64,000 nucleotides of DNA from the NCBI GenBank assembly GCA_002368195.1, contig AP018178.1, positions 5,145,286-5,209,285 on the forward strand, written 5' to 3'. The notes below the pieces were generated by a model that saw only the letters and a list, made by a program, of their open reading frames with translations, had not been told where the DNA came from and made no database searches. This DNA comes from Calothrix sp. NIES-2100 (GTDB lineage Bacteria > Cyanobacteriota > Cyanobacteriia > Cyanobacteriales > Nostocaceae). The position numbers were made by a program, and so were the translations under genes. Positions 7,976-45,335 of the stretch are shown piece after piece. The first letter of the stretch is position 1. Every line of letters begins with the position of its first letter.

Positions 7976-8027
7976 TGTTTTGTATATCTTGATGATATAC
8001 AATCATCACAAACCAAGAGGAAAATTA

Positions 8028-9173
8028 GTGAAAGCAAGATACCAGTATCGCTTCTATCCAACACCACAACAGCAACAAAGCCTAGCTCAGTTGTTTGGAT
8101 GTGTACGTGTTGTATATAACGATGCTTTGGCTATCTGCAAGCAGTCCGAAAAACTTCCCAAGAACAGCGAATTACAAAAGCTTGTAATTACACAAGCCAA
8201 AAAGACTGATGAACGCTCATGGTTGTCTGATGTTTCAGTAACTCCATTGCAACAGTCAGTTGCCGATTTAGGCGTTGCCTACAAGAACTTTTTTGATTTT
8301 CTTAAGGGTAAGCGAAAAGGGAAAAAAGCAGGAACTCCGCGATTCAAAAAGAAGACAAGTAAGCAGGGAGCAAGGTTTACGCTCAACAGTTTTTCAATTA
8401 AAGGTACGTTCGTATATCTAGCCAAAATTGGTAACGTTAAGCCTATTTGGTCTAGACGTTTACCGTCATCCCCGTCAAGCGTAACAGTCATCAAAGACTG
8501 CGAAGACCGCTATTTTCTTAGCTTTGTTGTAGAAATAGAACCTATTCATATTGATGCCAAAAACCAAAGCATTGGTATTGATTTAGGAATTCAAACTTTT
8601 GCAGTTATGAGCAATGGGGACAAAGCAGCAAGTCCCGATTACTCAAAAAAAGACCGCAAAATCCGCAAATTACAACGCAAGCTAGCAAGGCAACAGAAAG
8701 GGTCTCAACGTCGTGAACGTACTCGCATAAGAATTGCCAACAGACACAATCAAATTGCGGATACCCGCAAAGATTTCTTGCACAAGCTATCAACCAAAGT
8801 AGTTAGTGAGAACCAAACTATTGTTTTGGAAGATTTGAATGTGTCGGGAATGGTTAAAAATCGCAAGTTGGCAAGGGCGATTAGCTTGCAGGGATGGCGA
8901 GAATTTCGGGTATTATGCGAGGCTAAATGTGAAAAATTTAGTCGAGATTTCAGAGTAATTAATAGATGGGAACCCACCAGCCAAACTTGTTCTTGTTGTG
9001 GGTATCGATGGGGCAAGATTGATTTATCTGTTCGTTCAGTGTTGTGCTTGAATTGCAACACTGAACACGACAGAGATGATAATGCGTCCCGAAATATAGA
9101 AATGGTCGGCATGGGGCATCGGCACGACCTTAAACGGACGGGGAGCGACCATAAGACTACGAAGAGTAGCTAG
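8028..9173 (+). CDS. tnpB: IS200/IS605-family TnpB (OrfB) RNA-guided nuclease-like transposase accessory protein
   Basis: KARYQYRFYPTPQQ N-terminus, RuvC-like core and C-terminal zinc finger CSCCGY...CLNCNTEHDRDDNASRNI. Likely GTG start at 8028 (track ORF begins at TTG 7980). Confidence 0.85.
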   Translation: MKARYQYRFYPTPQQQQSLAQLFGCVRVVYNDALAICKQSEKLPKNSELQKLVITQAKKTDERSWLSDVSVTPLQQSVADLGVAYKNFFDFLKGKRKGKKAGTPRFKKKTSKQGARFTLNSFSIKGTFVYLAKIGNVKPIWSRRLPSSPSSVTVIKDCEDRYFLSFVVEIEPIHIDAKNQSIGIDLGIQTFAVMSNGDKAASPDYSKKDRKIRKLQRKLARQQKGSQRRERTRIRIANRHNQIADTRKDFLHKLSTKVVSENQTIVLEDLNVSGMVKNRKLARAISLQGWREFRVLCEAKCEKFSRDFRVINRWEPTSQTCSCCGYRWGKIDLSVRSVLCLNCNTEHDRDDNASRNIEMVGMGHRHDLKRTGSDHKTTKSS

Positions 9174-9245
9174 TTGCTGGGAGCCGTCAAGAATCGCCGA
9201 CGTTCTACGTCGGTGAGTATGTCAATGCGGCGGTCTCGCGCAAGG
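9174..9245 (+). ncRNA. Putative omega-RNA (reRNA) / right-end region of the TnpB element
   Basis: Located immediately 3' of tnpB, where TnpB guide RNAs are encoded. Contains a palindromic stem CCGACGTTCTACGTCGG typical of IS605 right-end hairpins. Confidence 0.3.
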
Positions 9246-9788
9246 TGAGTCAGTTGTAGTAGAAGTATCAGGAAATACAGCTAAAGTATGATACTCCGGG
9301 CTGTCATCACCATATAAAACTCGGAATGTATACAATTTAGTTTTTTCTGACCCTTCGGTAATTACTGTTAATAATGTATTGTTAGTATAAGGTAAACCGG
9401 GAATTGGCAGCTTTTTAATCCGTCTGAGTTGCATGACGTTTGCTGAAGAATTTTGGCAATCTCCTGTATTACCTCCTTGACCGAACTGCATACACATCGG
9501 CCCGTCAAAATCTATGGTTACCTGTGACGGGTCATTTAACCAAACTTTTTTAATTTTTTCTCCCGCCGGAATAAAACTGAGGTTTGTACCCTGCTGATAC
9601 CAAACTTTAATAGTAGGTACTACTCCGCTTAAACCTTGAGCTTGACAGGAAAAAATCGATCGCAGAACAGCATTCTCAGCTACAGCGCGTCCTGCTAATA
9701 AGATTGCAGCCACAAAACCTAAAGAAGCCAGAGGTAGAAAATAAGAATTATTTAAGATATTTGCGCGAAAATTGCTGTTTTTCTTCAT
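9222..9788 (-). CDS. Secreted hypothetical protein (possible outer T4SS component, VirB9/VirB7-like by position)
   Basis: Real start at internal ATG (MKKNSNFRAN..., signal peptide LASLGFVAAILLAGRAVA). The upstream PCPPC part of the track ORF is translated STRR repeat. Confidence 0.45.
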   Translation of the reverse strand: MKKNSNFRANILNNSYFLPLASLGFVAAILLAGRAVAENAVLRSIFSCQAQGLSGVVPTIKVWYQQGTNLSFIPAGEKIKKVWLNDPSQVTIDFDGPMCMQFGQGGNTGDCQNSSANVMQLRRIKKLPIPGLPYTNNTLLTVITEGSEKTKLYTFRVLYGDDSPEYHTLAVFPDTSTTTDSPCARPPH

Positions 9789-9789
9789 G

Positions 9790-9930
9790 GCTGAACTGGG
9801 AAGGAGTGGGCAGGGGGGCAGGGGGCAGGAGGGACAAGGGGGACAAGGGAGACAAGGAGGACAAGGAGAACAAGGATGATAAATAAGAAATATCCAATGC
9901 CCAATGCCCAATGCCCAATGCCCATTAATC
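9790..9930. repeat. STRR block: (GGGACAAGG)n octamers followed by (ATGCCCA)4 heptamers
   Basis: Tandem short repeats read directly; generate spurious ORFs 9704..9886 and the N-terminus of 9222..9911. Confidence 0.8.
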
Positions 9931-9931
9931 C

Positions 9932-11512
9932 TTAAAATTCCATTGTCTGATTGATATAGATTTCAACTTCTGTACCGGCTGGTAAAAACCAAACGTTGGT
10001 TCGCTGCATCATGTCGGAGATTGCTTGTTGATTGCGTTGGGCAATTTGCGGGACTACGGTGTTCATCCCACCTTCTAAGGCTGCTGCGATCATGTTGCGT
10101 TCTGGGTTATTAGTGCTAACCACAGTACCGCCTGCATTAGTTGTGACAACTTGGGATTCAGTCCGATTCATTAACTCGGCGGCTTTACCTAAACCACCCA
10201 AAACAAACAGTCCTATATCCATACTGGCAATGGATGATCCACGATTAGGATATTGTCTTGCTACCAGCGGTTTACCTTGGGAACCGCGAATCATGATGGC
10301 ATTTGGCGGTAAGCTATTTTCAGATATTCCATTACTATCTTTAGCGATCGCTTTCACCACATTTAGCTGTAGTAACCCTTGTTCGGAAAGAGTACGAATT
10401 TCTGTTAATAACTCCGTACCCGCAGGTATAGCAACGTTTCCATCTACACCTTTTAAAGGTTCTTGTAACCGCACGACAAATGTATTTTTGGCGGTTTCCT
10501 CGCCATTATTAGCGGCGGAATTAGAGGTTTCGCCAAATACAGCTGTGGCTAGCACAGCTTTAGCGCTACTCCCGACTGCTAAGGATTTGGAACCCTGCTT
10601 TGTTTGTTTATTTGCAATCAGAGTTGAGTCTTCTGTTGTGCTTGCATTCTGAGTTCCTGGCTCTGGGGTTGATTCAGGCTGAGGGTTAGTTGCCTGTTGC
10701 TGTATGTTGGGATTATTGGCAGTTTCAGCATTATTGACATTTGCTGTCTGTTGATTTTGGCTTACCTGACCATAACTACCTAACTTAGCTAGATTTGTCC
10801 ACATTTGATAGGGATCTAGTTTAGGTTTGGGAGTTTCTTTGATTGCTGGGGGAATATCCGGTTTGACAGCTAAAAGCTGGGGTTGGGATGGTGGTAAAGG
10901 TTGAGAGGGTGGTAAAGGTAGAGAGGCGATCGCTTGTTGTGGAGGTTGCGGTACATTAACGATGCGTTCAACTGTGACTATTTTCGGTGCGTTGCTTTTT
11001 GGCGTTTGTTTTGCGGCTATTGACTGTGGTTGAATTTGTGTATTTCTCAGTTGTTGTTGTGCTAGTTTCACCGCCTCTGCTTGTTCGGTGAGTGCTAATT
11101 TAGTTTTCAACTTTTCGATTTCTAACTCTTGCGGTGGAGATTCATTTACTATCGGCGTTTTCACTGGGGAAGTAATATTCTTCCTTTTTGGTTTTTGATT
11201 GTTGCTACTCATCATCTGAGTTAAAAACCCACCAGCAAACAGAACCACAGCGAAAGTCGCTGTACCTACTAAGCCTAATTTAGCAAAGGGATTTCCGGCA
11301 AAAGATTGCTCCGTTTTTACTTCTGATGGTTGCGAAATTTCAGGCTCTGAGATACCTGATTCTTCTATTGTTTCATCGCGGTCAAAGGAGAATTCTCCAT
11401 TTTCTAACCCGACTAATTTTGCCATTCTTAATTCCCAATCTTGAGAATCAATTTCTTCTAGTTGGCAATTCTTACTTGCAGAAATTTTTGCTGAACTTGA
11501 ATAGGGAGTCAT
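9932..11512 (-). CDS. VirB10/TrbI-like type IV secretion protein
   Basis: N-terminal TM helix, long Pro/Gln-rich linker, C-terminal beta-rich domain with IPAGTEL...LQLNVVKAI...GT.V.IYINQT pattern typical of TrbI/VirB10. Confidence 0.65.
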   Translation of the reverse strand: MTPYSSSAKISASKNCQLEEIDSQDWELRMAKLVGLENGEFSFDRDETIEESGISEPEISQPSEVKTEQSFAGNPFAKLGLVGTATFAVVLFAGGFLTQMMSSNNQKPKRKNITSPVKTPIVNESPPQELEIEKLKTKLALTEQAEAVKLAQQQLRNTQIQPQSIAAKQTPKSNAPKIVTVERIVNVPQPPQQAIASLPLPPSQPLPPSQPQLLAVKPDIPPAIKETPKPKLDPYQMWTNLAKLGSYGQVSQNQQTANVNNAETANNPNIQQQATNPQPESTPEPGTQNASTTEDSTLIANKQTKQGSKSLAVGSSAKAVLATAVFGETSNSAANNGEETAKNTFVVRLQEPLKGVDGNVAIPAGTELLTEIRTLSEQGLLQLNVVKAIAKDSNGISENSLPPNAIMIRGSQGKPLVARQYPNRGSSIASMDIGLFVLGGLGKAAELMNRTESQVVTTNAGGTVVSTNNPERNMIAAALEGGMNTVVPQIAQRNQQAISDMMQRTNVWFLPAGTEVEIYINQTMEF

Positions 11513-11521
11513 AAGTACGTC

Positions 11522-12214
11522 TTAGGGTGAATTTTCCGAACAACTTTTATCTTTCATGTCACAAATCTTGTAGATTTGTAATCTAGCCGAACCTAGGCGG
11601 TAAGCAGCCTGTTGCAAAGGAATTGCAGACTGAGGTAAAGAAGTAACTTGTTCATCTGTAGCTTGGACATAAATTTGTTGATTAACGGGAATCGACTCGC
11701 CAAGTCTATCTGCACCCTGAAAAACTAATTGATGAGCAACCATTTCGACTTTCCACTTACCCTCAGCTATTTTTTCGGGTTGAGAAATTCTCTGGATCGC
11801 TAATAGCTGCTCATCTGATTGATTGTAGTTATTTAATTTTTTATTGGGATTTAAGTTATTAATTTTGGTTTGTAATTTGGGCTGAAAATCTTCAGTTACT
11901 AATTGAGAACTAATTTCCCAAACAGTATTTTGTGGTTGCTGCTGTGACCAAGTTAACATTAAAGTCATTGTTTCGCCCACAAATCGCCGAATTGTTTGTT
12001 GATCTCGTTCTAAATTTTCTTGTGGGTTGACTGTAATTGCCCGACCATCAGCCAATTGTACCAAACTTGGCAATGTTGTTTGCCGATTTAATCGCTGCAA
12101 AATCGACCAGTGAAACATCAATACCAACAAAGTTAACAGATGTACTCCCAATGTGCCAATGGCAAACAATGGTAAGATATTAGTCTTTTTATTTTCTGTT
12201 TTCAGTATTTGCAT
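11522..12214 (-). CDS. Bitopic membrane protein, VirB8-like candidate (paralog A)
   Basis: N-terminal TM; clear paralogy with 12218..13042 (FAIxTxG..LL, QLxDGxA, RDxxAIRxF, TMTL..WS, GKWxVxMVA, LxIYE). Confidence 0.4.
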   Translation of the reverse strand: MQILKTENKKTNILPLFAIGTLGVHLLTLLVLMFHWSILQRLNRQTTLPSLVQLADGRAITVNPQENLERDQQTIRRFVGETMTLMLTWSQQQPQNTVWEISSQLVTEDFQPKLQTKINNLNPNKKLNNYNQSDEQLLAIQRISQPEKIAEGKWKVEMVAHQLVFQGADRLGESIPVNQQIYVQATDEQVTSLPQSAIPLQQAAYRLGSARLQIYKICDMKDKSCSENSP

Positions 12215-12217
12215 TGT

Positions 12218-13042
12218 TTATCTAGTAAAATTGCCAGATTTTTGTTCGGTTTCACATTGAGTTGATTTTGCTCCTTCCAAATTATCATACTTATCAATTA
12301 AACATAAATTCCGCATCTCATAAATTTCTAATCTCTCAGCCCGCACCAAATAAATTGCTTTTTGTAAAACTGTTAGTTGTTCAGATTGGGGATAATCAAA
12401 GTAATCTACTGCTTGCACCAATATATCTTTATTAAAAGGAACAATTAACTTTTTGCCATCAGCTTTTTTAGTTTGAATCAAGTCAGCTACCATCCCCACT
12501 TGCCATTTACCTGGTGAAATTTCTTTCGGGGGATAAACCCGTTTAATTACTAATTGTCCTGAGATAATTTGTTGCGGATTATTGGCGAAAACTTCTGGTG
12601 GTGTCATCAGCGCAATTTGACCTAAAAACCCTTTGCGGAAATCTTCAGCAAAGGCAAAACTAGCTATCCAACTACTAGTAGTCACTTTTTGACTACCACC
12701 ATTGGGGGTTTTAATTAGTATTCCCAAATCTGGTTTAGGCTTACCAAATTCTTCCAGGGATTGTGGCGGTAAAGTTCCTGACCAGTCAAAGATTAATGTC
12801 ATCGTTTTACTAATGAATTGGCGAATTGCTTCGCTATCTCTAACTAAATCATCACCAGAATCAACAGCTTTACCATCAACCATCTGCACAAAATTCGGCT
12901 GTTTTCTCACACTCAGTTGGCGAATATTCAAGCCTTGGGCGATTAAAAACAGCAACAGTAATAGCTGCAATCCAAAAGTAGCGATCGCAAAAATTGTTAA
13001 AATACTGGCAGTACGTTGTTTTTTCTCTAATAACCGTACCAT
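12218..13042 (-). CDS. Bitopic membrane protein, VirB8-like candidate (paralog B)
   Basis: Same architecture and conserved blocks as 11522..12214; tandem duplication. Confidence 0.4.
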   Translation of the reverse strand: MVRLLEKKQRTASILTIFAIATFGLQLLLLLFLIAQGLNIRQLSVRKQPNFVQMVDGKAVDSGDDLVRDSEAIRQFISKTMTLIFDWSGTLPPQSLEEFGKPKPDLGILIKTPNGGSQKVTTSSWIASFAFAEDFRKGFLGQIALMTPPEVFANNPQQIISGQLVIKRVYPPKEISPGKWQVGMVADLIQTKKADGKKLIVPFNKDILVQAVDYFDYPQSEQLTVLQKAIYLVRAERLEIYEMRNLCLIDKYDNLEGAKSTQCETEQKSGNFTR

Positions 13043-14089
13043 TTATACCCTCTCTTTCACCCAAGAAGCTGTATTCCCAATCGCATTAAAAACTGCAAAT
13101 CCTCCCGCCGCTGCTACTAATAAAGATAAAATCGGTGCTAAAATTCCTAAGAAAATCATGAACCACATTAAATCAGGGTCAGCATTGGGATCTTGGGCTG
13201 GGCCATTCACAATCACAGCAGCAGTTAACACAGCAATAATATTGAATGAAATTTTGGCAATCCCTAAAGATATAAACCCAGTCAGCCATGCAAAAATCGG
13301 TTTACCTGCTACTGGTAGTAAGGAACCACCCACCGCTAAAGGCCCTAAAGCTGCTATCAGCAACATCGTCGCCTCGATTAAATTTTGAAAAGCATATTGT
13401 AAGGAAACTAAAAAGTTTTTTATACTAGTTTGTACCGTAGAACCTAACAATGCATTAAAAGAACCTTCCGAGATATATCCTGTGCCATAGCTAATCTGAT
13501 TTACCTTATTTTCTAAGCGTTCAATCCAGACTTTATTACCATATAAATTTTTATATTCTTGCCAGAGATTATTAATTTTTTCTGATGCTTTAGTAAAGCA
13601 TTGAGATTGTTGTTCACCATTCAAAGATTGACAAGGACGTAGTAAAGCACCAGCCACCTCTTCCGCCACACTCATATTTAGCGCCTGCTGATAAACCGAG
13701 TTAGCATCTGCTGTGGCGATTACTTGCTGATTTACCGAATTGATAAAGTTGCGTACCCCTAAAGTCAAACTAGAAAGAATACTGCCATCTCCAGAATTAT
13801 TTAACAAAATCACCACCACAAACGGCCATATCATAGATGATATGGGACGAGAAAATTCACCTTCTAGGACATCTTTCAACCATTGCATGAGGAAAAATAA
13901 TAAAGTTCCCACCGCAAAAAATATACCTAAATTTGTTAAAGCGCCATAAATATTTTCACTGGGATTTTTTTGTAATAAATCTAGCCATTGATTCTCCCAG
14001 CTTTCGGCAATACTTTGGGCAGTTGTCGCGCCATTGCCGATAAATTCTCTAATGCCTGTATCCGCAGGAACTTGTAAAATATACTGCAT
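13043..14089 (-). CDS. Polytopic membrane protein, VirB6/TrbL-like candidate
   Basis: 348 aa with at least 5 predicted TM helices and a hydrophilic N-terminal region; positioned in the T4SS-like cluster. Confidence 0.45.
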   Translation of the reverse strand: MQYILQVPADTGIREFIGNGATTAQSIAESWENQWLDLLQKNPSENIYGALTNLGIFFAVGTLLFFLMQWLKDVLEGEFSRPISSMIWPFVVVILLNNSGDGSILSSLTLGVRNFINSVNQQVIATADANSVYQQALNMSVAEEVAGALLRPCQSLNGEQQSQCFTKASEKINNLWQEYKNLYGNKVWIERLENKVNQISYGTGYISEGSFNALLGSTVQTSIKNFLVSLQYAFQNLIEATMLLIAALGPLAVGGSLLPVAGKPIFAWLTGFISLGIAKISFNIIAVLTAAVIVNGPAQDPNADPDLMWFMIFLGILAPILSLLVAAAGGFAVFNAIGNTASWVKERV

Positions 14090-14118
14090 TTTAAGGTTTA
14101 AATTAGGGCATGGGGCAT

Positions 14119-14290
14119 GGGGCTTCTCTGCGAGACGCTGCGCGTAGCTTGCTTCCCGTAGGGTACGACTTCGCTCAGCCTACCAGGAATTGGGCATTGG
14201 GCTTCTCTGCGAGACGCTGCGCGTAGCTTGCTTCCCGTAGGGTACGACTTCGCGATAGTTGAGCGTAGTCGAAACTCAGCCTACCAGGTA
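14119..14290. repeat. Tandem duplicated ~77-bp element (GGGCTTCTCTGCGAGACGCTGCGCGTAGCTTGCTTCCCGTAGGGTACGACTTCGC...) flanked by (ATGGGGC)/(ATTGGGC) and (TGACAAA)n STRR
   Basis: Two copies read directly; 5' part recurs at 57112-57135 downstream of nifH. Confidence 0.7.
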
Positions 14291-14341
14291 TTGGGCATTG
14301 GGCAACTGACAAATGACAAATGACAAATGACAAATGACTAT

Positions 14342-15133
14342 TCACTTTTTAATTTCCTTCCTCCCAAATAAATCCATTTGCGAAGTTGTGCGTAACAGCC
14401 TTGCAGCTTCCGCCGATGAATCAACTCGCCGCGCCCGATTGTTTTCTTCCATTTGTTGAGAAATGCTGGCTAAATTTAAGTTAGAATATTGCATAAAATG
14501 GTTGACTTGCATCGTCTGAGCTAGGGTTTCTCCTGCAATTTTGGATTGCTGACTTTGAATTTTGAGAGTTTTTAGTTGTAAATCAGATTGACCACTGAAT
14601 AACGAACCTAAACCCGGAATACTTGCAGCACCTGCTTGAGTGAGTTGTGATGGTAAGCCATTAAGAATACTTTGATAGCTTTGATCTGCCTCTTGTGCGA
14701 TTTGAGCAATATTTTCTAGAGTGTCTTGAGTTTCTTGTAACTTGAGTTTTGTTCTAATTTGTCCATTTTTACCCAAAACACTGGCTACAGAACTGCGAGT
14801 AACTAGGCGATTAATTTCATTAGTAGCGACTGTAGATTTGAGCGCCGGATTATTATCGAATTTATCTGAGATGGAATTGACAATCACCACATTTCCTAAC
14901 CTATCTCCCGCTGCGACTGGATTGGGTAAGTTCAACTGTCCTGTAGATTCATTAATTGCATTTTGAGACTGCATTTCTACAGGCTTTAATGTGGTGCTTA
15001 AATTATTTTTGAGATAGTTTTGTAATTCGGCGGAGTAGGATTGAAAATCAACTAAAACATTGCCTAATTCTGCCATTGCTGGTAGTGTTACTAGCAATCC
15101 TAAACCGAGGGTAAAAATAATAGTTTTTTTCAT
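14342..15133 (-). CDS. Secreted alpha-helical protein, VirB5/TrbJ-like candidate
   Basis: Signal peptide MKKTIIFTLGLGLLVTLPAMA, Gln/Ser-rich helical sequence, 263 aa; sits between VirB4-like and VirB6-like genes. Confidence 0.35.
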   Translation of the reverse strand: MKKTIIFTLGLGLLVTLPAMAELGNVLVDFQSYSAELQNYLKNNLSTTLKPVEMQSQNAINESTGQLNLPNPVAAGDRLGNVVIVNSISDKFDNNPALKSTVATNEINRLVTRSSVASVLGKNGQIRTKLKLQETQDTLENIAQIAQEADQSYQSILNGLPSQLTQAGAASIPGLGSLFSGQSDLQLKTLKIQSQQSKIAGETLAQTMQVNHFMQYSNLNLASISQQMEENNRARRVDSSAEAARLLRTTSQMDLFGRKEIKK

Positions 15134-15139
15134 AGGTTT

Positions 15140-15262
15140 GTTATTTGTCAGTTGTCAGTTGTTAGTTGTCATTTGTCATTTGTTTTTCACTGTGTCCCTG
15201 CGTCTCCCTCATCCTCCTTGTCCCCCTTGTCCCCCTTGTCCCCCTTGTCCCTTCCCCTACCT
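15140..15262. repeat. STRR block (TTGTCAG/TTGTCAT heptamers then CCCCTTGT octamers)
   Basis: Read directly; produces spurious PCPPCPPC ORFs 15060..15281 and 15152..15379. Confidence 0.8.
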
Positions 15263-15263
15263 C

Positions 15264-18008
15264 TCAACTCCCGCGCAATGAGGCTACTAATTGACGCGCA
15301 AATACAGAAATTGCTTCATATTTATCTCGGTGTCGTTGCATTGATTGTTGGCGTGCAGATTGTTCGTGGGGATTGTTAGCAACTACAGCCAATTGTTCGT
15401 AACCTGGGTAGTAGCGACAGAATGTATAAATCCCGTTATCATCTAGCAACCACTGGCTATAAATCCCCTCTTTGCGAGGGAAGAAGCTTTCGGAAGCATT
15501 ACGGGCGATAATTTCTTTGGGATATTTCAAGATATCGACAAAACTATCCACCGCTACTGGCTGAATTCGACCGATTAATCTGGTGGTGAGGTTTTGTAAA
15601 ATTTTCGATGCAGCTTTGGATTTGGCGATGGTATCGGGGTCTTGTGCAGATAAAATGACGCGAATCCCCGCTTTTGCACCGTTAGCACAAATTCTGCCGA
15701 CTAAATTGGCGATTTGGTCAAATTCAAACAAAATTGGGGCTTCATCAATAAAGAATATCGAGGCGGGACTGCTGAGGGCGCGGCGTAAGGCGGCGGAGTA
15801 AGCACTCAAGGAAAGTACGGCTGCATCTTCGCTATCGGAGAGGTTGCGCAGTGCAAATACTAAAAGTTTGGCATCTGTGCGGAAGCTGGATGGGGCGGAA
15901 ATGGCTTGTCCGACGCGACTAGAAAGCCAAAATCGCAAGCGTAGCTGAATTTGACTCAATGCATCTTCAACTCTGCTGCTAAGGGAGTCGAGTTCTAAAT
16001 GTTCTGGGGAACAGAAATAGAGGAAATCTTTGAGAGTTGGGGTTTTTTGCCAAGCTAGAGAACCAAAACCCCCGTCCATTGCATCTTGATAACGCTGTTT
16101 GATACCGCGATCGCTAAAAAATGCCGCTAATGCTAAATTTATTAAGGAGCGTACAGTTTGTCCTAGCAGTGGGCTTTCTGTGGCTGACCCCAATACCATT
16201 GTCAGCAAAGCTGATTCCAAGAATGCGGTATAATCAAGCATTCTGTCCCGTTGTTCTTCTTCACTTAAAGAACGCAAATCTGGCTGCTCAAATAAGTTAT
16301 TCGATTGTTTAGAAATATCAAAGTAGGCTCCATTCTCCTCCATGAATTCTGTATAATCTGTGAAGGTGGATGTGCCATCGGGTTTCGGAAAGTCTAAGGC
16401 GACCACCGGAATATTATGAGCTAAAGCTTGGGTTAAAATTCCCGACACCAACACCGATTTTCCGGCTCTGGTTGTGGCAAATAATGCTAAATTTTTGTGT
16501 TGGGTAAATAAATCTAAATGTATCGGTGTACCCCCTTCCGAGGCAATTAATTCAAAGCCTTGACTATCACCTTTTCTAGTTAATACCAAAGGCATTAATC
16601 CGGGAACTTCGCTAGTTAAATATAACTGTCGCCGATTAAAGGGTTTGACTAATAAACCTTCCCAAACTATCGGCAACGATTGTAACCAAATCTTCCAAGC
16701 ATATTCGGTTTCTCTAATTACCTTGGCTGGGCGTTGAAAACAGTTTTCAATATATCTTGTGGCTGCATCCAATTGTTCAACACTAGAACGATGGACGAAC
16801 ATAGCTATCCCTGTATATATAGGTACGGCTCCTTCAAACAATTGTTCTTGGGCTGCTACGGATTTCTTTAATTTTAATTGGGCATTGACATCAATTGTTC
16901 TACTTTTTTCTTGAGCCATGAGGGCTGTCATATTTGACTGCTTCAGGACTCGTTGTAAGGTAGTCTTTACTAATGCCGGATTTGCGGCTGTTAACTGACA
17001 AAATATCTCTGTATCTACTACAGTTTCTCTGGATAATACTTCCCATAAATAGCGCAGTTGGGAGGATTTATTTGCCCAGCCACCGGGTTTATCTAAAAAT
17101 GTGAGTGCGCCAATATAGCGATTGTTGACATTCACCCACCGCCTGTCTGCACAAGGAACACCAGATTCCATCAGTAAGGTGGTACTGTGAATATTCTCGA
17201 CTAAAAGTTTCGTACTCGGCAAGTCGGAATAAACTTGTTCGTGCAGTCCGCTTTCATCTAAGGTGAGCAATTGGGGAATCTCTATCGGGGGCGTATCGTT
17301 AAATCTTCTCCAGATTTCTCCCCATAGTTGTGTGGCGGTTAATGGCTTAATATCTAAGCCCATTTTGTTAGATAACAGTTGTTCCCAACGACTAAAACCT
17401 TGTTTATAGGCGTTGGTAATTACGGTTTCTAGGCGCTGGTTTTCTACTTCGGCAATATCCCCTTTAAATTTCAACCACCAAGCTTCGGTTCTGGCTAAAA
17501 ATTTCTCAATTACATCATCTGCATTGGCAGCATTTGGTTCCACGGTGTATGTGACATAAATCCGCAGAAATTTTGGTTTGCGAATCCCGGAATTTGTCAA
17601 TTCTTTAGTTCTGGCTCGTTCTGCCATTAACAAGTATTTGATATCCCGAGAACTGCTATTTCTGGCTAAATCGGCTAATTCTTGTTGTCGTTCTTTGTCG
17701 TCAATAAATGACCCCAAATGCAACGTCATTTTTTCGCCGCTGGGGATGTCTTTTAATCCGGCTTCGATGTTGTCAAAAATTGTATCGATTTGTTCTCTTC
17801 TCAAGGTGCTATGAATGCCACGACATTCAAACCCAAACACAAAGCAAAATCTATCTTTTTGGTTGCCTTTGGTTAAAATATAAGCGCCGATATCTCGTCT
17901 ATTAAAGGAGACGCGCAGCATTGTGGCTAGGTGTAAGGCATCTTCAAACGGTGTTAACCTGGCGTTGCCGGCGGTACCGATGCTTTGTTTTCCGATTTTT
18001 TGCTTCAT
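15264..18008 (-). CDS. VirB4/TrbE/CagE-like type IV secretion ATPase
   Basis: 914 aa; Walker A FATTRAGKSV and Walker B-like FFIDEAP in the C-terminal half; size and layout match VirB4-family ATPases. Confidence 0.65.
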   Translation of the reverse strand: MKQKIGKQSIGTAGNARLTPFEDALHLATMLRVSFNRRDIGAYILTKGNQKDRFCFVFGFECRGIHSTLRREQIDTIFDNIEAGLKDIPSGEKMTLHLGSFIDDKERQQELADLARNSSSRDIKYLLMAERARTKELTNSGIRKPKFLRIYVTYTVEPNAANADDVIEKFLARTEAWWLKFKGDIAEVENQRLETVITNAYKQGFSRWEQLLSNKMGLDIKPLTATQLWGEIWRRFNDTPPIEIPQLLTLDESGLHEQVYSDLPSTKLLVENIHSTTLLMESGVPCADRRWVNVNNRYIGALTFLDKPGGWANKSSQLRYLWEVLSRETVVDTEIFCQLTAANPALVKTTLQRVLKQSNMTALMAQEKSRTIDVNAQLKLKKSVAAQEQLFEGAVPIYTGIAMFVHRSSVEQLDAATRYIENCFQRPAKVIRETEYAWKIWLQSLPIVWEGLLVKPFNRRQLYLTSEVPGLMPLVLTRKGDSQGFELIASEGGTPIHLDLFTQHKNLALFATTRAGKSVLVSGILTQALAHNIPVVALDFPKPDGTSTFTDYTEFMEENGAYFDISKQSNNLFEQPDLRSLSEEEQRDRMLDYTAFLESALLTMVLGSATESPLLGQTVRSLINLALAAFFSDRGIKQRYQDAMDGGFGSLAWQKTPTLKDFLYFCSPEHLELDSLSSRVEDALSQIQLRLRFWLSSRVGQAISAPSSFRTDAKLLVFALRNLSDSEDAAVLSLSAYSAALRRALSSPASIFFIDEAPILFEFDQIANLVGRICANGAKAGIRVILSAQDPDTIAKSKAASKILQNLTTRLIGRIQPVAVDSFVDILKYPKEIIARNASESFFPRKEGIYSQWLLDDNGIYTFCRYYPGYEQLAVVANNPHEQSARQQSMQRHRDKYEAISVFARQLVASLRGS

Positions 18009-18336
18009 GATTTACTTCCAACAAGCTTTGATAACGTGCAAAGCCTCTTGTCCATGCAGGAACACCAATAAATTTACTTAAAAAGCTCCAACTTCTACCA
18101 CCAGTTAAGATCCACCAGGTTGCCATTCCCCAAGCGGCGATTAGGAATGTCCACATCCATTTTTTAAATTCATCTTGAAATAGTCCGCCAAAGATGCCGT
18201 TAATTATAAAATAGGCTGCTAGGGCAATGACTGTCCACGGTAAGATTTGATCTGCTGGTATGGGGCCGAGGGATGGTTGAGAGCCTAAAATTTGATTGAC
18301 TGGACGAAAGTCTTTGTCTGGTTCTTGAGACATCAC
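17944..18336 (-). CDS. Small membrane protein, VirB3-like candidate
   Basis: 130 aa, two TM helices, immediately upstream of and overlapping the VirB4-like gene as in virB3-virB4 arrangements. Confidence 0.4.
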   Translation of the reverse strand: MMSQEPDKDFRPVNQILGSQPSLGPIPADQILPWTVIALAAYFIINGIFGGLFQDEFKKWMWTFLIAAWGMATWWILTGGRSWSFLSKFIGVPAWTRGFARYQSLLEVNHEAKNRKTKHRYRRQRQVNTV

Positions 18337-18347
18337 AAATCGCTCAA

Positions 18348-19001
18348 TTACTTACTATTATTATTGCCAATGACAAAGCCTGTTAATACATCCGCGATGG
18401 TGACAGCAACCACAACTAATAAGGGGGTTCTGGCGATGTTTTGCCAATCTTCGTCTTTTCGCACGGCGTTAACTACGCCAATCAGGGCGACAGCTATATA
18501 TAGTAGGTATAGTGCCCGTAAGACGTTAAAGACTAATCCTACTGCTAGTTGGGTACCTCCAGCGTTGCTTGTGCCTTGAGTCAGGGTGTTTTGAAAGAAG
18601 TCTTCCGCTTTTTTGAAAAATTGCCCTTGTGCTGGCGCGGCGAAGTAATCTAGCCAGAATATGCTCAACAGGGTGACTGCTGCTAATATTTGCAGTGGGA
18701 TTAGTTGGCTTTTTGGTATTGTTATTGCCTCTCCTAAGCGCTGTATTACTATTGTGATTAAACTCCCCATGAGTAAACAAAAAAGTAACACAGGGCTTTT
18801 CAGGCTAATAACGCTTAATAGTACTGCGCAGGCTAGCAAAAAGGGTATTGATTCAATTAGCTGCAACCACCAGTATTTCAGCGTCCCTCGAAATTGATTG
18901 ACTGCTTTCATCATGCTCCTAGGTAAGGTTGTGAAGAAGTTCCGCTGATGGGAACGTTGCTTGAACATTTGAGCAATTTCCCCATTGATGATTAATCTCA
19001 A
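18348..19001 (-). CDS. Polytopic membrane protein (first gene of the T4SS-like cluster; VirB2/VirB6-like candidate)
   Basis: 217 aa with 4-5 hydrophobic helices. Confidence 0.35.
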   Translation of the reverse strand: MRLIINGEIAQMFKQRSHQRNFFTTLPRSMMKAVNQFRGTLKYWWLQLIESIPFLLACAVLLSVISLKSPVLLFCLLMGSLITIVIQRLGEAITIPKSQLIPLQILAAVTLLSIFWLDYFAAPAQGQFFKKAEDFFQNTLTQGTSNAGGTQLAVGLVFNVLRALYLLYIAVALIGVVNAVRKDEDWQNIARTPLLVVVAVTIADVLTGFVIGNNNSK

Positions 19002-36131: not shown

Positions 36132-37298
36132 CTAGAAAATATCTGCTGGGTCAGCAGCGCGGAGTTTACGCATAGCGATCGCCCCAGAAAAACTACACAT
36201 GATAATTGTTAAAATAAATACTTTAAATGCCCGGTCTACCTTCATGGAAATAGGCAACAATGTCGCAGCGTAGGTTAGCTGATATAGTCCCAAAGAGAGG
36301 AAAAATGAGGGTAAAAAACCTAAGATAGCTAAAAATAATGCTTCTTGTAACAGAACTGTGAGTAAATAGCGATCGCTATAACCCATTGCTTTGAGGGTGG
36401 CGTATTCTGGTAGGTGTTCGGAGACATCGGAATAGAGGATTTGGTAAACAATCACAATCCCAACAATGAATCCGACTCCCACACCTAAGCCAAAAATGAA
36501 GCCAATACCAGTACCAGTAGCCCAATAATTTTTTTCAATTTGGGCAAATCCTTCGGTAGTCAGAACTATGACATCATTGGGTAAAATAGCTGCAAGTTGC
36601 GATCGCACTTGTTCCGGATTAGCACCAGGTTTAAGAGTCAGTAAGCCTACCTCAATGCGATCGCTTTGGCGATCAGGGAAAAGTTGCAAAAAGGTAGAAT
36701 CACTAGTAACTACATTTCCATCAGCCGCAAAGGAAGCACCGTTACTAAACACGCCTTTGACATTGATAGCTTTGTTATTTAATTCGGTGGCAAAGTTGCC
36801 TGTTTTCTTGAAGATAGTACCAATATCTCCATATTCCGGCCTACCTGCTTGGTCAAACATGACTTGATATAACTGCTTCAAATCATTTTGATGTTGCTTA
36901 ATCTCCGGGAATAAAAAAGCTGGTTTTGCTGGATCTATACCCCAAACCAAAATGGCGCGATCAAGACGAGTTTCGGGATTTCGCCATTGTCCGGTGCTGA
37001 TGTAAACCGAGTTTACTGATTGCACGCTCTCATGACTTAATGTTTGATATAAGCGTTCACGAGAAAAGCTTTTGACTGAGAATAAAGTTTGAAATTGGGG
37101 ATTAATTAAAACTAAATCTGCCTGTAAATTGCGATGGGGTTGGACGGCTGCATCAAACAGCGCACTTTCAAAACCTAACTGAATAAACATCAGCATATCA
37201 GCAAAGGTAATACCTGCCACTGCTACTGCAAGACGGGTTTTTTCTTTCATTAACTGCCGCCAAGCTAGCGGAGTTTTGCGAAATAATTTTGATAGCAT
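36132..37298 (-). CDS. devC: ABC transporter permease (FtsX-like), DevC-like
   Basis: 388 aa, N-terminal TM, large periplasmic loop, C-terminal 3-TM FtsX region. Confidence 0.8.
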   Translation of the reverse strand: MLSKLFRKTPLAWRQLMKEKTRLAVAVAGITFADMLMFIQLGFESALFDAAVQPHRNLQADLVLINPQFQTLFSVKSFSRERLYQTLSHESVQSVNSVYISTGQWRNPETRLDRAILVWGIDPAKPAFLFPEIKQHQNDLKQLYQVMFDQAGRPEYGDIGTIFKKTGNFATELNNKAINVKGVFSNGASFAADGNVVTSDSTFLQLFPDRQSDRIEVGLLTLKPGANPEQVRSQLAAILPNDVIVLTTEGFAQIEKNYWATGTGIGFIFGLGVGVGFIVGIVIVYQILYSDVSEHLPEYATLKAMGYSDRYLLTVLLQEALFLAILGFLPSFFLSLGLYQLTYAATLLPISMKVDRAFKVFILTIIMCSFSGAIAMRKLRAADPADIF

Positions 37299-37367
37299 AA
37301 GTATTAGTCATTTGTCATTTGTCATTTGTCATTTGTCATTTGTCAACAGTCAACACTTCGGCTTTGC

Positions 37368-38675
37368 TCAGTGACCACGGTCAACAGTCCCCAATTCAAT
37401 CGCTGTTTGTACTTGCAAGTTCGTTAACCCGGAAACGCGCTTGCTATCTTCGGGGTTTAGACGAATTTTTACTTCAATAACTCGACTATCAAGGTTTTCT
37501 CCTGGTTGATTGCTAAAAACGTTTTGTCTATTAACTTGTAAGCCAACCTGGGAAACTTTACCCCTTATTTCTCCAGTAAATGCTTGACCGGTAATTACTG
37601 CTTTTTGTCCCAGTCTTACCTTACTAATGTCAGTTTGATAAACTTCTGCAACTGCAATCATTTGGTCAGTTTGGGCAAAGTCTGCAATACCCGAATCACC
37701 AATTTTTTCACCAGCGCGGTAATGTATTTTGAGAACTTGTCCTGCTGTTGGTGCTTTGATGTATGCTGCTGCTAAATCAGTTTGGGCGTGTTTGAGGGAT
37801 GCGATCGCATTTTCAACTTCTGTTTGAGCTGCGGCTATATCTACGGGACGGACTTCGGCAATACTATTGAGTGTGGCTTTGGCTTCGCTAATTTCTTTGT
37901 TACCAGTGGCGTTAATGCGGTTGAGTGCTACTTTTGCTTCTGCTAGTTGTCTGCTAGCTGTGGTGTTGATGCGGTTGAGAACGGCTTGCGCTTCATCTAG
38001 TTGCTGTTTGGTGGTGTCTACACTCAAACGCCTAGTGTCAAATGCAGAATTAGAAATTGCTCCATCTTTATATAACTGTTGATAACGCAGATATTCTGCT
38101 TGGGCATTGTTGAGTTCGGCTGTCAGTTTTTTAATTGTCGCTTCTTGGGCAATTCTATCACCTTGCCATTGTGCCTCTATGCGGGCGATCGCTTCTTGTT
38201 GACTTTGGCGATCGCCAATCGATTGTGCCTGCAAACGTTCCACTGTTGCTTGCTGTGCTTGAATTTCTCCAGTTTTCGCCCCCGCTTTCACTTGTGCGAG
38301 TTTAGCTTGGGTGACTTGGACTTGTTTTTGCGCTTGGAGTACCGCAGTTTGTAAGCGATCGCGTGCATCTAAAACTGCTATAATTTGTCCGGCTTCGACG
38401 CGATCGCCTTCTTCAACCAGGATTTTCGCAATGCGATCGCCATCTAATGCTAGGGGTGCAGATAACTTAATTACCTCGGCTTCTGGTTGCAGTCTTCCTA
38501 AAGCCGTTACTTTTTGCAAAATTGGCGCAGTTGGTATTTCCTCCGAAGCAGTGCGCCCAACTTGACCAAACTGAGAAATAGCATAAACAGCAATTCCACC
38601 TGTAATCGCAGTAGCAGCAATTCCTAATACAATTAGTCCTCTATTTTTTGGTTTCAATAATAGCCTATAACTCAT
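37368..38675 (-). CDS. devB: Membrane fusion protein (HlyD family), DevB-like
   Basis: N-terminal TM, long coiled coils, beta-barrel C-terminus; devB-devC-devA gene order. Confidence 0.8.
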   Translation of the reverse strand: MSYRLLLKPKNRGLIVLGIAATAITGGIAVYAISQFGQVGRTASEEIPTAPILQKVTALGRLQPEAEVIKLSAPLALDGDRIAKILVEEGDRVEAGQIIAVLDARDRLQTAVLQAQKQVQVTQAKLAQVKAGAKTGEIQAQQATVERLQAQSIGDRQSQQEAIARIEAQWQGDRIAQEATIKKLTAELNNAQAEYLRYQQLYKDGAISNSAFDTRRLSVDTTKQQLDEAQAVLNRINTTASRQLAEAKVALNRINATGNKEISEAKATLNSIAEVRPVDIAAAQTEVENAIASLKHAQTDLAAAYIKAPTAGQVLKIHYRAGEKIGDSGIADFAQTDQMIAVAEVYQTDISKVRLGQKAVITGQAFTGEIRGKVSQVGLQVNRQNVFSNQPGENLDSRVIEVKIRLNPEDSKRVSGLTNLQVQTAIELGTVDRGH

Positions 38676-43685: not shown

Positions 43686-45197
43686 CTACAAATTCTGAAA
43701 ATATTGACGGTATAACTCAGAACTTAATGTTATTTCATCACCTTGCAGTTTTACTAATCCAAGTGCGCGTAATTTATACCTAACTTCGTTATTAAATACT
43801 GGCGAATTAGCAGAAAAAAGTAACTCTTTCATTGCTGCTTCTAATTGAGGCTGTTGTTTCAAAATTGACTCTATACGACGGAGATAATTACTGAAAATTC
43901 CAGATGTAGTGGATGCTGTTTGCAAGAGTTGAGATATAGTTGTCTCTTGATTGGCAATTTTATACAGAGCTAAACGGATTAAAAATGGTTGTCCTCCTAC
44001 CATTTCTATCAATCTTTCAATCTCTGCATCACTCAAATTGAGTTGGTGTCGTTGAGCTAAATCTTTAACTTGCTCTTGTGTAAATTCTGGTAGTTCCACT
44101 ACTAAACCAACGTTGAATGGTGATTGATGAATATTCATCGGGACGTAAGCTTCGGTAGAGTGTACTATCACCAGTCGTAGCTTTGTCCAAATATCCCGGC
44201 GTTTTGCTTCTTCGTGGAGAGAACGCAGTAAACCAAAAAAGTCTTTATAAATTTTTGGGTATTCAAATACTTTATCTACTTCTTCTAATGCCAAAGTTAA
44301 CCTTTGAGGGATTTCTGGAAACAGATATTGCTCGAAATACTCCATGCAAGTTTTCATGCTACCGATACGTCGAGCTAAGTTCCAATGTTCATCTAATTGT
44401 GACAGCAGCTTTGTTTGTAGTTCCTGATTTTCTTTTGTTATTTCTAGAATTAGATTGTCGCAAAACCAGCGTAAAAACGTGTTTAATTCACCGAAAAGTT
44501 CAGACTCTGCAAGTCGAAAGTCTATAGTTACACTCATGTCACCTTGACTGTTAGCTTGATGAAGAATTTTTACTAACAGCGAAGATTTGCCCGTTTGTTG
44601 GGGTGCTTTAATACGAATTAGAGAACCAGGTTTGGAAATTTCCTCGTAACAACGTTGTTCGATGGGGAAACGCTGAATATAAAAGTAAGAATTTAGGGGT
44701 ACTTCTCCTTCTGGGTATTCGAGGGAATCAGCAGGGGTGTTCTCAGCCGCTATATCTAGCCTGCTAACACTTAACGCTTTGCAAATTTCATCAAAGTTAT
44801 TGCGATCGATAGCTTTACCTCTAAAAAAGCTGTTGATTGTTGACTCAGACAGTCCCAAATGTCCTGCTAAATCTGTCTGACTAATGAAGCCATTTCGCAA
44901 AAGGGCTTTCTTCAAATCATCAATACATTCTTTCTTTACGTATAATGACCTTTTCGGGGAATTGAGAGAGGAATTATCAGTTGTTATTGCTATATCTTGT
45001 CTGTTAATATTTAACGCTTCACAAATTTTATCAAAGTTTTCTTTATCAATAGCTGTCCCTCGGAAAAAGCTGTCAATTGTTGCTTTGGAGAGCTTCAAAG
45101 CTTCAGCTAATTTTGAGTTACTAGCAAAGTTACTTTGCAGCAGGGTATTTTTCACATCATCAATACGCTCAGTACGTACTCTGAATGACCTTCCCAT
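43686..45197 (-). CDS. Tandem HTH-like N-domains fused to an AAA-like (Pfam AAA_35-type) NTPase domain
   Basis: Two roughly 75-aa repeats (...LKLSKATIDSFFRGTAIDKENFDKICEALNI...) then a P-loop QQTGKSSLLVKIL. Paralogous to the N-terminus of 45336..48944. Confidence 0.6.
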   Translation of the reverse strand: MGRSFRVRTERIDDVKNTLLQSNFASNSKLAEALKLSKATIDSFFRGTAIDKENFDKICEALNINRQDIAITTDNSSLNSPKRSLYVKKECIDDLKKALLRNGFISQTDLAGHLGLSESTINSFFRGKAIDRNNFDEICKALSVSRLDIAAENTPADSLEYPEGEVPLNSYFYIQRFPIEQRCYEEISKPGSLIRIKAPQQTGKSSLLVKILHQANSQGDMSVTIDFRLAESELFGELNTFLRWFCDNLILEITKENQELQTKLLSQLDEHWNLARRIGSMKTCMEYFEQYLFPEIPQRLTLALEEVDKVFEYPKIYKDFFGLLRSLHEEAKRRDIWTKLRLVIVHSTEAYVPMNIHQSPFNVGLVVELPEFTQEQVKDLAQRHQLNLSDAEIERLIEMVGGQPFLIRLALYKIANQETTISQLLQTASTTSGIFSNYLRRIESILKQQPQLEAAMKELLFSANSPVFNNEVRYKLRALGLVKLQGDEITLSSELYRQYFQNL

Positions 45198-45335
45198 AGC
45201 TAATAATAAAAAATTTACTAAATGGAGATAAAAACTAAGTATTTGTATAGTACAGTAAAATACAAATCAATGTGAACTCAAATTTCTCCAAACTAAACTC
45301 ACGTTGAGTCATGTTTTGATGCGATTAGCCACTTC

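Follow-up and report, generated by a model that had tools for sequence, protein, structure and literature searches.

A stretch of 64,000 nucleotides from the chromosome of Calothrix sp. NIES-2100 (the 64-kb window; positions are counted from its first letter) carries at 9222-19001 a compact cluster of nine open reading frames (ORFs), all on the minus strand. The initial annotation, made from the letters of this stretch alone, had described ten co-oriented minus-strand genes resembling a type IV secretion system (T4SS). Strand and co-orientation were correct, but the count was not: the genes that it listed sum to nine, and a search of 64 related loci for a further conserved gene (at least 100 aa) found none. 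The T4SS assignment held as well, but the cluster need not be left unclassified. We assign it to the cyanobacteria-specific MPF_C class (MPF, mating-pair formation), which was defined in 2014 together with its VirB3, VirB6, VirB8, VirB9, and VirB10 homologies (PMC4027160). The model locus of this class lies on plasmid pCC7120alpha (PMC4027160, PMC3548315), and the nine window genes are all collinear with their homologues there, alr7204-alr7211. The chromosomal orthologues in Anabaena PCC 7120 are all0463-all0471, and Nostoc punctiforme also has orthologues.

The mechanical ORFs across the cluster measured, from low to high coordinates, 229, 526, 230, 274, 348, 263, 914, 130, and 217 aa. The bounds proposed initially gave the right region but not the two outermost gene starts. 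According to the alignment of orthologues, the 229-aa ORF, which extends to 9911, starts at M42 (window 9788) and yields a protein of 188 aa. Its 41 additional N-terminal residues (CSPCPPCLPCPPCPSCP..., 9789-9911, minus strand) are Cys/Pro-rich and represent a translated array of short tandemly repeated repetitive (STRR) sequence rather than protein. Likewise, the 217-aa ORF, which extends to 19001, starts at M12 (window 18968) and yields 206 aa.

Components of the secretion apparatus

The largest gene (15264..18008, minus strand, like all those below; homologue of alr7206 and all0469) encodes the 914-aa VirB4-family ATPase of the MPF_C clade. It was matched by the NCBIfam models TraC-F (1.6e-13), VirB4_CagE (1.2e-10), and TrbE (2.9e-6), with scores far under the curated cut-offs; the matches extended over as many as ~450 residues and took in sequence ahead of the P-loop. 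Walker A (G516-K517-S518) and Walker B (D755-E756) were invariant in a 15-sequence alignment of the VirB4 family, and hhalign scored the protein at 2.7e-12 against VirB4 and 6e-7 against VirB11. With alr7206, which published VirB4 phylogenies use as the MPF_C reference (PMC3548315), the protein shares 53% identity. PADLOC returned only a mad8 match (5e-14), which we read as P-loop similarity. The VirB4/TrbE-like ATPase of the initial annotation is upheld by the profile matches and the invariant motifs.

The 526-aa protein (9932..11512; alr7210/all0464 homologue) is VirB10/TrbI. It passed the Pfam TrbI model (43.5 bits; gathering score, 35), covering profile positions 2-188 of 188. A single transmembrane (TM) segment spans residues 76-94 ahead of a Pro-rich linker and the C-terminal TrbI domain, as had been predicted. 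For the other seven proteins, Pfam and NCBIfam gave no match. Thus, profile searches recovered the TrbI and VirB4 families directly but not the VirB3-, VirB6-, and VirB8-like proteins, for which other evidence was used.

Between these two genes lie three that encode members of the putative inner-membrane platform. The 348-aa protein (13043..14089; alr7208/all0467 homologue) has at least four predicted TM segments with a large TM1-TM2 loop. Although it did not match TrbL itself, BLASTP linked it at 9e-27 to a pCC7120gamma protein whose Pfam TrbL score exceeds the gathering cut-off (32.7 versus 25.9), which supports, by transitivity, the proposed polytopic VirB6/TrbL-like identity. The 274-aa (12218..13042; alr7209/all0466 homologue) and 230-aa (11522..12214; all0465 homologue) proteins are both predicted to be bitopic, and structure supports a VirB8 identity with an NTF2-like periplasmic domain. 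Both match the single alr7209; they are 28-33% identical to each other, and orthologues of the 230-aa protein match the 274-aa protein with BLASTP E values down to about 1e-27. The two tandem bitopic VirB8-like paralogues proposed at the outset are therefore supported by topology, structure, and mutual similarity. The 230-aa copy is specific to the chromosomal subtype.

The 130-aa membrane protein (17944..18336; alr7205/all0470 homologue) is encoded by a gene whose 3' end overlaps the virB4 gene by 65 nt, confirming the overlap noted earlier. Its VirB3 role is suggested by gene fusions, as it aligns with the first ~100 residues of proteins in which VirB3 and VirB4 are fused, from pCC7120gamma (E = 5e-7) and an Oscillatoria plasmid (5e-18). 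The protein is 38% identical to alr7205. No Pfam match, no significant hhalign match to VirB3, and no sequence match to VirB3/TraL were obtained for it. The MPF_C class has been reported to have a VirB3 homologue (PMC4027160).

Two secreted proteins and a further polytopic protein had been listed initially without an identity, and each can be refined. The secreted 188-aa protein (9222..9788; alr7211/all0463 homologue) resembles the N-terminal domain of VirB9: hhalign gave P = 5.5e-4 over this domain only, including a 'TLLTViT..KlYtFrv' motif, which weakly supports a VirB9-like assignment. One member of its family showed weak matches to Pfam CagX (0.06) and DUF4138 (0.037), and Pfam scans of each member of the VirB8-like and VirB9-like families found no significant family. 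Its match to the plasmid homologues, which are 246-325 aa long, is confined to their first ~140-160 aa. The 206-aa protein (18348..18968; alr7204/all0471 homologue) is a candidate prepilin. It combines a variable hydrophobic leader with a C-terminal domain of ~100 aa that is conserved in chromosomal and plasmid MPF_C loci and has a pilin-like layout: A-x-A-Q|FF, TM1, a charged 'RKDEDWQ..ARTP' loop, and TM2. Four hydrophobic segments were predicted in total; the comparison with VirB2 reached only P = 0.01 in hhalign, and no PDB match was found. The other secreted protein (263 aa, 14342..15133; alr7207/all0468 homologue) is all-helical in the predicted model (pLDDT 73.5). Its position would make it a putative VirB5 counterpart. 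No VirB5/TraC fold match was found for it; ClyA-family pore-forming toxin components recurred among its matches, none of them significant.

The hhalign targets were four-sequence alignments of the canonical VirB1-B11 proteins (pTi, R388, R46, and R751) and F Tra proteins. This set was insensitive, with the true VirB10 pair reaching only P = 0.042, so that the missing matches for VirB3, VirB6, and VirB8 are uninformative. Only the VirB4 and VirB9 results were counted as support.

STRR blocks had been noted inside the cluster, and three arrays with units of 7-9 nt were confirmed, all intergenic: at 9808-9924 between virB10 and the VirB9-like gene, at 14106-14338 (heptamers) between the VirB5-position gene and the VirB6-like gene, and at 15138-15251 between virB4 and the VirB5-position gene. 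The cluster heptamers also occur at unrelated sites in other Nostocales loci.

Class membership, distribution and selection

Compared with the pCC7120alpha locus (alr7204-alr7213), eight families occur in the same order with 24%-53% identity. The order common to chromosomal and plasmid MPF_C loci is candidate pilin, VirB3-like, VirB4, helical secreted protein, VirB6-like, VirB8-like, VirB10, and VirB9-like. VirB11 is found in neither version. However, the coupling protein (alr7213), the alr7212-like gene, and a relaxase are all missing from the chromosomal version, which carries two VirB8 paralogues instead of one and whose VirB9-like protein lacks the C-terminal ~80-150 aa of the plasmid homologues. 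Among six plasmids with full MPF_C arrays, each array had a single VirB8-like gene and five had a coupling protein, placed after the VirB9-like gene and the next gene (alpha, Microchaete p02, Leptolyngbya p1, gamma, and Acaryochloris pREC2). No coupling protein was found in the stretch examined of the Oscillatoria plasmid locus. All six plasmids are typed with a relaxase, which in alpha and gamma lies within the stretch examined. The plasmid VirB4 copies, all of them from cyanobacteria, are 24-60% identical to the window VirB4.

Several plasmid MPF_C VirB4 proteins are N-terminally ~100-170 aa longer (1015-1083 aa) than the window VirB4 (in our locus set, L089 12716-15772, L090 12638-15889, L097 4172-7219, and L099 11566-14691). 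In pCC7120gamma and the Oscillatoria plasmid, this extension aligns with the window VirB3-like protein and represents a VirB3-VirB4 fusion. For two Acaryochloris plasmids, a fusion is suggested by length alone.

The absence of VirB11, VirD4, and a relaxase near the cluster, reported initially, was confirmed throughout the window. In tblastn searches of the 64 kb with nine coupling proteins, five relaxases, three VirB11 proteins, and alr7212-like proteins, nothing scored better than E = 0.09. Relaxases of the MobV, MobF, MobP, and MobQ types were not found in the window, nor did Pfam detect any in the flanking and other large ORFs. Within 10 kb on either side of the cluster, no other gene of at least 100 aa was common to more than 48 of the 64 full-length loci, which excludes a coupling protein conserved beside the cluster. 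Thus, the locus has lost the coupling protein, the relaxase, and the alr7212-like gene. All known conjugative T4SSs require a coupling protein and a relaxase (PMC8600333). Therefore, the locus cannot be self-transmissible, and the earlier statement that it is no standard conjugative system stands. The lack of VirB11 had also been part of that argument. As VirB11 is usually absent from MPF_C and from systems outside MPF_T (PMC4027160), this lack does not set the locus apart.

A scan of one genome per species gave 280 loci. Among the best 80 of these, VirB4 is 83-95% identical across genera, and all loci are labelled as Nostocales chromosomes or contigs except two contigs of metagenome-assembled genomes, one labelled Chroococcales and the other, a short contig, Acetobacteraceae. 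The locus thus recurs across heterocyst formers, in at least 80 species-level genomes, and the naturally competent strain Chlorogloeopsis fritschii PCC 6912 is among those that have it. As suggested by the initial annotation, synteny was compared across Nostocales. The nine genes are intact, with order and strand kept, in 63-64 of the 64 full-length loci, nearly all of which are from Nostocales; both VirB8 paralogues are present in 63. Flanking genes are common only within subclades, and the chromosomal position varies between subclades.

The locus is under purifying selection. Against four close relatives, the ratio of nonsynonymous to synonymous substitution rates (dN/dS) ranged from 0.04 for VirB4 up to 0.22 for VirB10. 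The flanking genes gave 0.03-0.04 (guaA), 0.09-0.12 (rsmH), 0.12 (cbiD), and 0.16-0.26 (histidine kinase), with dS similar to that of the cluster. In a neighbor-joining tree, the window VirB4 grouped with its plasmid MPF_C counterparts and separately from MPF_T and MPF_F. The chromosomal VirB4 proteins formed a tight, short-branched clade with taxonomy-like substructure, nested among the long-branched plasmid MPF_C proteins. Unlike plasmid MPF_C, then, the chromosomal version is vertically inherited and slowly evolving.

The sister of the chromosomal clade was the VirB4 of Gloeothece verrucosa PCC 7822, a unicellular strain, which carries a rearranged copy of the cluster on an 880-kb linear replicon (NC_014533.1, 134983-165721). 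Its VirB4 is 76% identical to that of the window, and two VirB8-like genes are present. The VirB6/B8/B8'/B10 block lies ahead of the pilin-like, VirB3, and VirB4 genes. No coupling protein was found in the stretch examined, and BLAST found no VirB9-like homologue. Upstream of this copy lie two additional hypothetical genes, of 317 and 455 aa, without a Pfam match. The initial annotation had considered a machine of a filamentous cyanobacterium; with the Gloeothece copy, the cluster is not restricted to filamentous forms.

Probable host function and alternative explanations

We interpret the nine genes as the structural core of an MPF_C-class T4SS without a substrate-recruitment module, selectively maintained and vertically inherited in the chromosomes of heterocyst formers, and give this reading a probability of about 0.7. 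Because the cluster is kept intact by selection, it probably serves the host in some way, and a host function seems the most likely role. VirB4, as the sole ATPase, would power the assembly of an inner-membrane platform of VirB3, VirB6, and the two VirB8 proteins (B8 and B8') as well as that of a VirB10/VirB9-like channel across the envelope. It would probably also extract the pilin-like protein, whose pilin role remains putative, from the membrane to give a short surface filament. Owing to the lack of a coupling protein, such a machine would be unable to recruit cytoplasmic relaxase-DNA complexes. By analogy, its output may be a pilus or a contact/adhesion filament, as in Bartonella Trw, which is the best placed of the candidates and still a tentative one. 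Export of periplasmic substrates, as in Bordetella Ptl, is somewhat less probable, and DNA uptake or release, as in Helicobacter ComB, and a channel with a coupling protein supplied in trans follow in this order.

Expression was examined in published RNA-seq data from Anabaena PCC 7120 after nitrogen step-down (Flaherty et al., supplement), which were unreplicated and had low counts. The assignment of all0463-all0471 as orthologues rests on the all0468 name, the identity of zupT with all0473, the coordinates in that supplement, and the locus structure. Counts for all0469 (virB4) were 33, 28, 194, and 186 at 0, 6, 12, and 21 h, and those for all0468 were 9, 15, 61, and 60, so that both genes rose about 6-fold in this unreplicated series. 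Counts at the same times were 1, 3, 8, and 11 for all0463 and 17, 10, 43, and 38 for all0464, and all0465, all0470, and all0471 changed less than 2-fold. In the main text of the literature searched, all046x, all0470, and all0471 appear in only two papers. One counts all0463 among the genes that only heterocyst formers have and that the obligate symbiont N. azollae lacks (Simm et al., PMC4365693), and the other predicts a FurC box 91 nt upstream of all0465 (PMC10406281). In the window cluster, promoter and terminator scans were not above chance, and the NtcA consensus GTAN8TAC was not found in upstream or intergenic regions. Over the whole window, GTAN8TAC occurs 17 times versus 9.95 expected, a count reached by 1 of 100 shuffles.

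The locus might also be viewed as a decaying remnant of an integrated conjugative element, functionless after losing its relaxase, coupling protein, and integrase. It is indeed MOBless and without a coupling protein, a TnpB gene adjoins it, and its chromosomal position differs between subclades. However, the nine frames are intact in nearly all full-length loci, the dN/dS values resemble those of neighboring housekeeping genes, the catalytic motifs are invariant, and the PCC 7120 data show transcription and induction. Moreover, attachment-site features are missing, with no tRNA in the 64-kb window and no GC anomaly, and no integrase was found among the flanking genes scanned. Traits of a conjugative element, such as an integration module or a patchy distribution, are thus missing along with the relaxase and the coupling protein. 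The remnant explanation was rejected on the intact frames, the dN/dS values, and the invariant motifs, and we consider it strongly disfavored; the pattern of distribution and evolution fits a domesticated, vertically inherited locus. Slighter still is the chance that the ATPase is not VirB4 but another FtsK/HerA-type P-loop protein and the cluster no T4SS at all, a refutation that the initial annotation had itself named. Pfam gave the ATPase only a weak DUF87 match, and the PDB sequence searches, run with single sequences of VirB4 and VirB10 and with profiles of the VirB4, VirB10, VirB8-like, VirB9-like, VirB6-like, and pilin-like families, yielded nothing beyond FtsK/HerA P-loop matches; with the VirB4 profile these reached 2.6e-5, and a VirB4 chain was not among them. 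The low NCBIfam scores point the same way. This explanation was rejected as well, on the extent of the NCBIfam matches beyond the P-loop, the better hhalign match to VirB4 than to VirB11, the identity with alr7206, and the VirB10, VirB8, and VirB6 homologues next door.

Two further explanations grant the T4SS identity and differ over its use. A coupling protein and relaxase of mobilizable plasmids or genomic islands could dock on the chromosomal apparatus and use it as a trans-acting mating channel, for which the core appears complete enough. Many cyanobacterial plasmids are typed as mobilizable, encoding a relaxase without genes for mating-pair formation (23 of 134 VirB4-matching plasmids; PMC8600333). 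We regard this use as unlikely, as five of the six full plasmid arrays keep a coupling protein beside their own set, none is conserved within 10 kb of the chromosomal cluster, and the high VirB4 identity across genera with its very short branches is atypical of fast-diverging mobile machinery such as the plasmid copies. In PCC 7120, the chromosomal locus coexists with three plasmid MPF_C systems, of which alpha and gamma have their own coupling proteins and beta matches VirB4 and a coupling protein. A machine for DNA uptake or DNA release analogous to Helicobacter ComB is similarly improbable, even though the gene content parallels that of ComB (VirB2-4 and VirB6-10, without VirB11, VirD4, or a relaxase). 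T4SSs used for natural transformation have been noted (PMC3158045). Against such a machine here, none of the loci has competence genes linked to the cluster, whose VirB4 belongs to MPF_C and is related to ComB4 at the family level only. Cyanobacterial competence, moreover, depends on type IV pili and Com proteins.

Several points weigh against our own interpretation of the cluster as a host-maintained MPF_C core. The copy in unicellular Gloeothece speaks against a function strictly tied to filaments or heterocysts. With so short a VirB9-like protein, the formation of an outer-membrane complex is in question, and the pilin and VirB5 assignments have no significant sequence or fold match behind them. 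The induction comes from unreplicated RNA-seq with low counts, in which three of the genes were unresponsive. As the search covered 64 kb of the genome, another chromosomal region or a plasmid may encode a coupling protein. Finally, the function is a putative one, and the literature search found no functional study of the locus.

T4SSs without a coupling protein that were co-opted by their hosts are known from Bartonella Trw and Helicobacter ComB, which serve adhesion and DNA uptake, respectively, and Trw has duplicated structural components. Both are MPF_T, whereas the present locus is MPF_C. Trw keeps VirB11 and amplifies pilus genes, whereas here VirB8 is duplicated and VirB11 is absent. 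At this locus, adhesion or DNA uptake would be a hypothetical role. The Rickettsiales rvh T4SS differs further in that it keeps VirD4 and VirB11, secretes effectors into eukaryotic hosts, and belongs to another MPF class. No effector or toxin genes, a trait of protein-secreting T4SSs such as Ptl, Dot/Icm, and Cag, were linked to the cluster, in which only the nine structural genes are conserved. TXSScan recognizes protein-secreting T4SSs only in MPF_T and MPF_I, the two classes to which recognized cases of co-option are confined (PMC4793230), and MPF_C has no experimental system (PMC3548315, PMC5587801).

As reported previously by Guglielmini et al. in 2011, MOBless T4SSs exist in cyanobacteria and were speculated to act in protein secretion or signaling (PMC3158045). 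The locus studied here is likewise a T4SS gene set without a nearby relaxase, but that report does not describe it, its composition, its conservation, or its expression. In the literature we found, the chromosomal subtype (coupling protein and alr7212-like gene lost, VirB8 doubled, VirB9 short), its conservation in Nostocales, its slow evolution, and its response to nitrogen step-down are not described. It may, though this is still doubtful, be the first exapted MPF_C machine: induced by nitrogen starvation, vertically inherited, with a heteromeric VirB8 pair and VirB4 as its sole ATPase, and serving the host in diazotrophic filaments, for example, in heterocyst-associated export or as a contact filament.

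A host-maintained MPF_C locus without a coupling protein, conserved across Nostocales, would offer a tractable entry point, since two genetically amenable models, Anabaena PCC 7120 and Nostoc punctiforme, have orthologues. It touches on the question of how VirB4 as the only ATPase can run a T4SS and on the purposes for which free-living phototrophs co-opt T4SS scaffolds. More speculatively, it could bear on a dedicated machine for the non-classical or heterocyst-associated protein export that has been reported and left unexplained. There is also a practical side, since current annotation leaves eight of the nine cluster proteins hypothetical and plasmid-typing tools call such loci MPF_T.

Typing of MPF_C loci and neighboring features

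MOB-suite typing (PLSDB) labels the cyanobacterial MPF_C loci of NC_003276.1, NC_003267.1, NC_019763.1, and others 'MPF_T', so automated typing misclassifies the class. In PGAP, the alpha-plasmid VirB4 is named 'type IV secretion system DNA-binding domain-containing protein'. On a plasmid of Pseudanabaena sp. ABRG5-3 (locus L087, 18668-21978), the MPF_C array ends in a truncated VirB10-like gene (265 aa), which is followed on the opposite strand by a cyclic-oligonucleotide-based antiphage signaling system (CBASS) oligonucleotide cyclase cluster. This T4SS locus looks as if it had been interrupted by a defense island.

The Calothrix cluster is flanked on one side by tnpB, an M20 peptidase gene, and ndhH and on the other by rsmH, a GAF histidine kinase gene, guaA, and cbiD; Pfam annotation of these neighbors agrees with the tnpB and rsmH flanks given initially. 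The TnpB gene (7980-9173, plus strand) adjoins the 3' side of the cluster and is of the IS200/IS605 type, with OrfB_IS605, HTH_OrfB, and Cas12f1-like TNB domains. In three closer relatives (L005, L008, and L009), ndhH lies only ~0.6-1.5 kb from the cluster end, and this strain thus appears to have undergone a local insertion or rearrangement involving the TnpB and M20 peptidase genes. Directly downstream of the PCC 7120 cluster, on the same strand, lies the TamB-family gene all0462 (L084, 18712-22748; 1829 aa), a member of an outer-membrane biogenesis translocase family. This neighbor is absent from the window, and no flanking gene is common to all 64 related loci.

Elsewhere in the window, two gene pairs unrelated to the T4SS cluster were noted. 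A divergent pair at 43686-48944 consists of a minus-strand gene for an HTH-AAA_35 protein of 503 aa and a plus-strand gene for an AAA_35-WD40 protein of the STAND type (1202 aa). The other pair, at 36132-38675, encodes a DevBC-like FtsX permease and an HlyD membrane-fusion protein.

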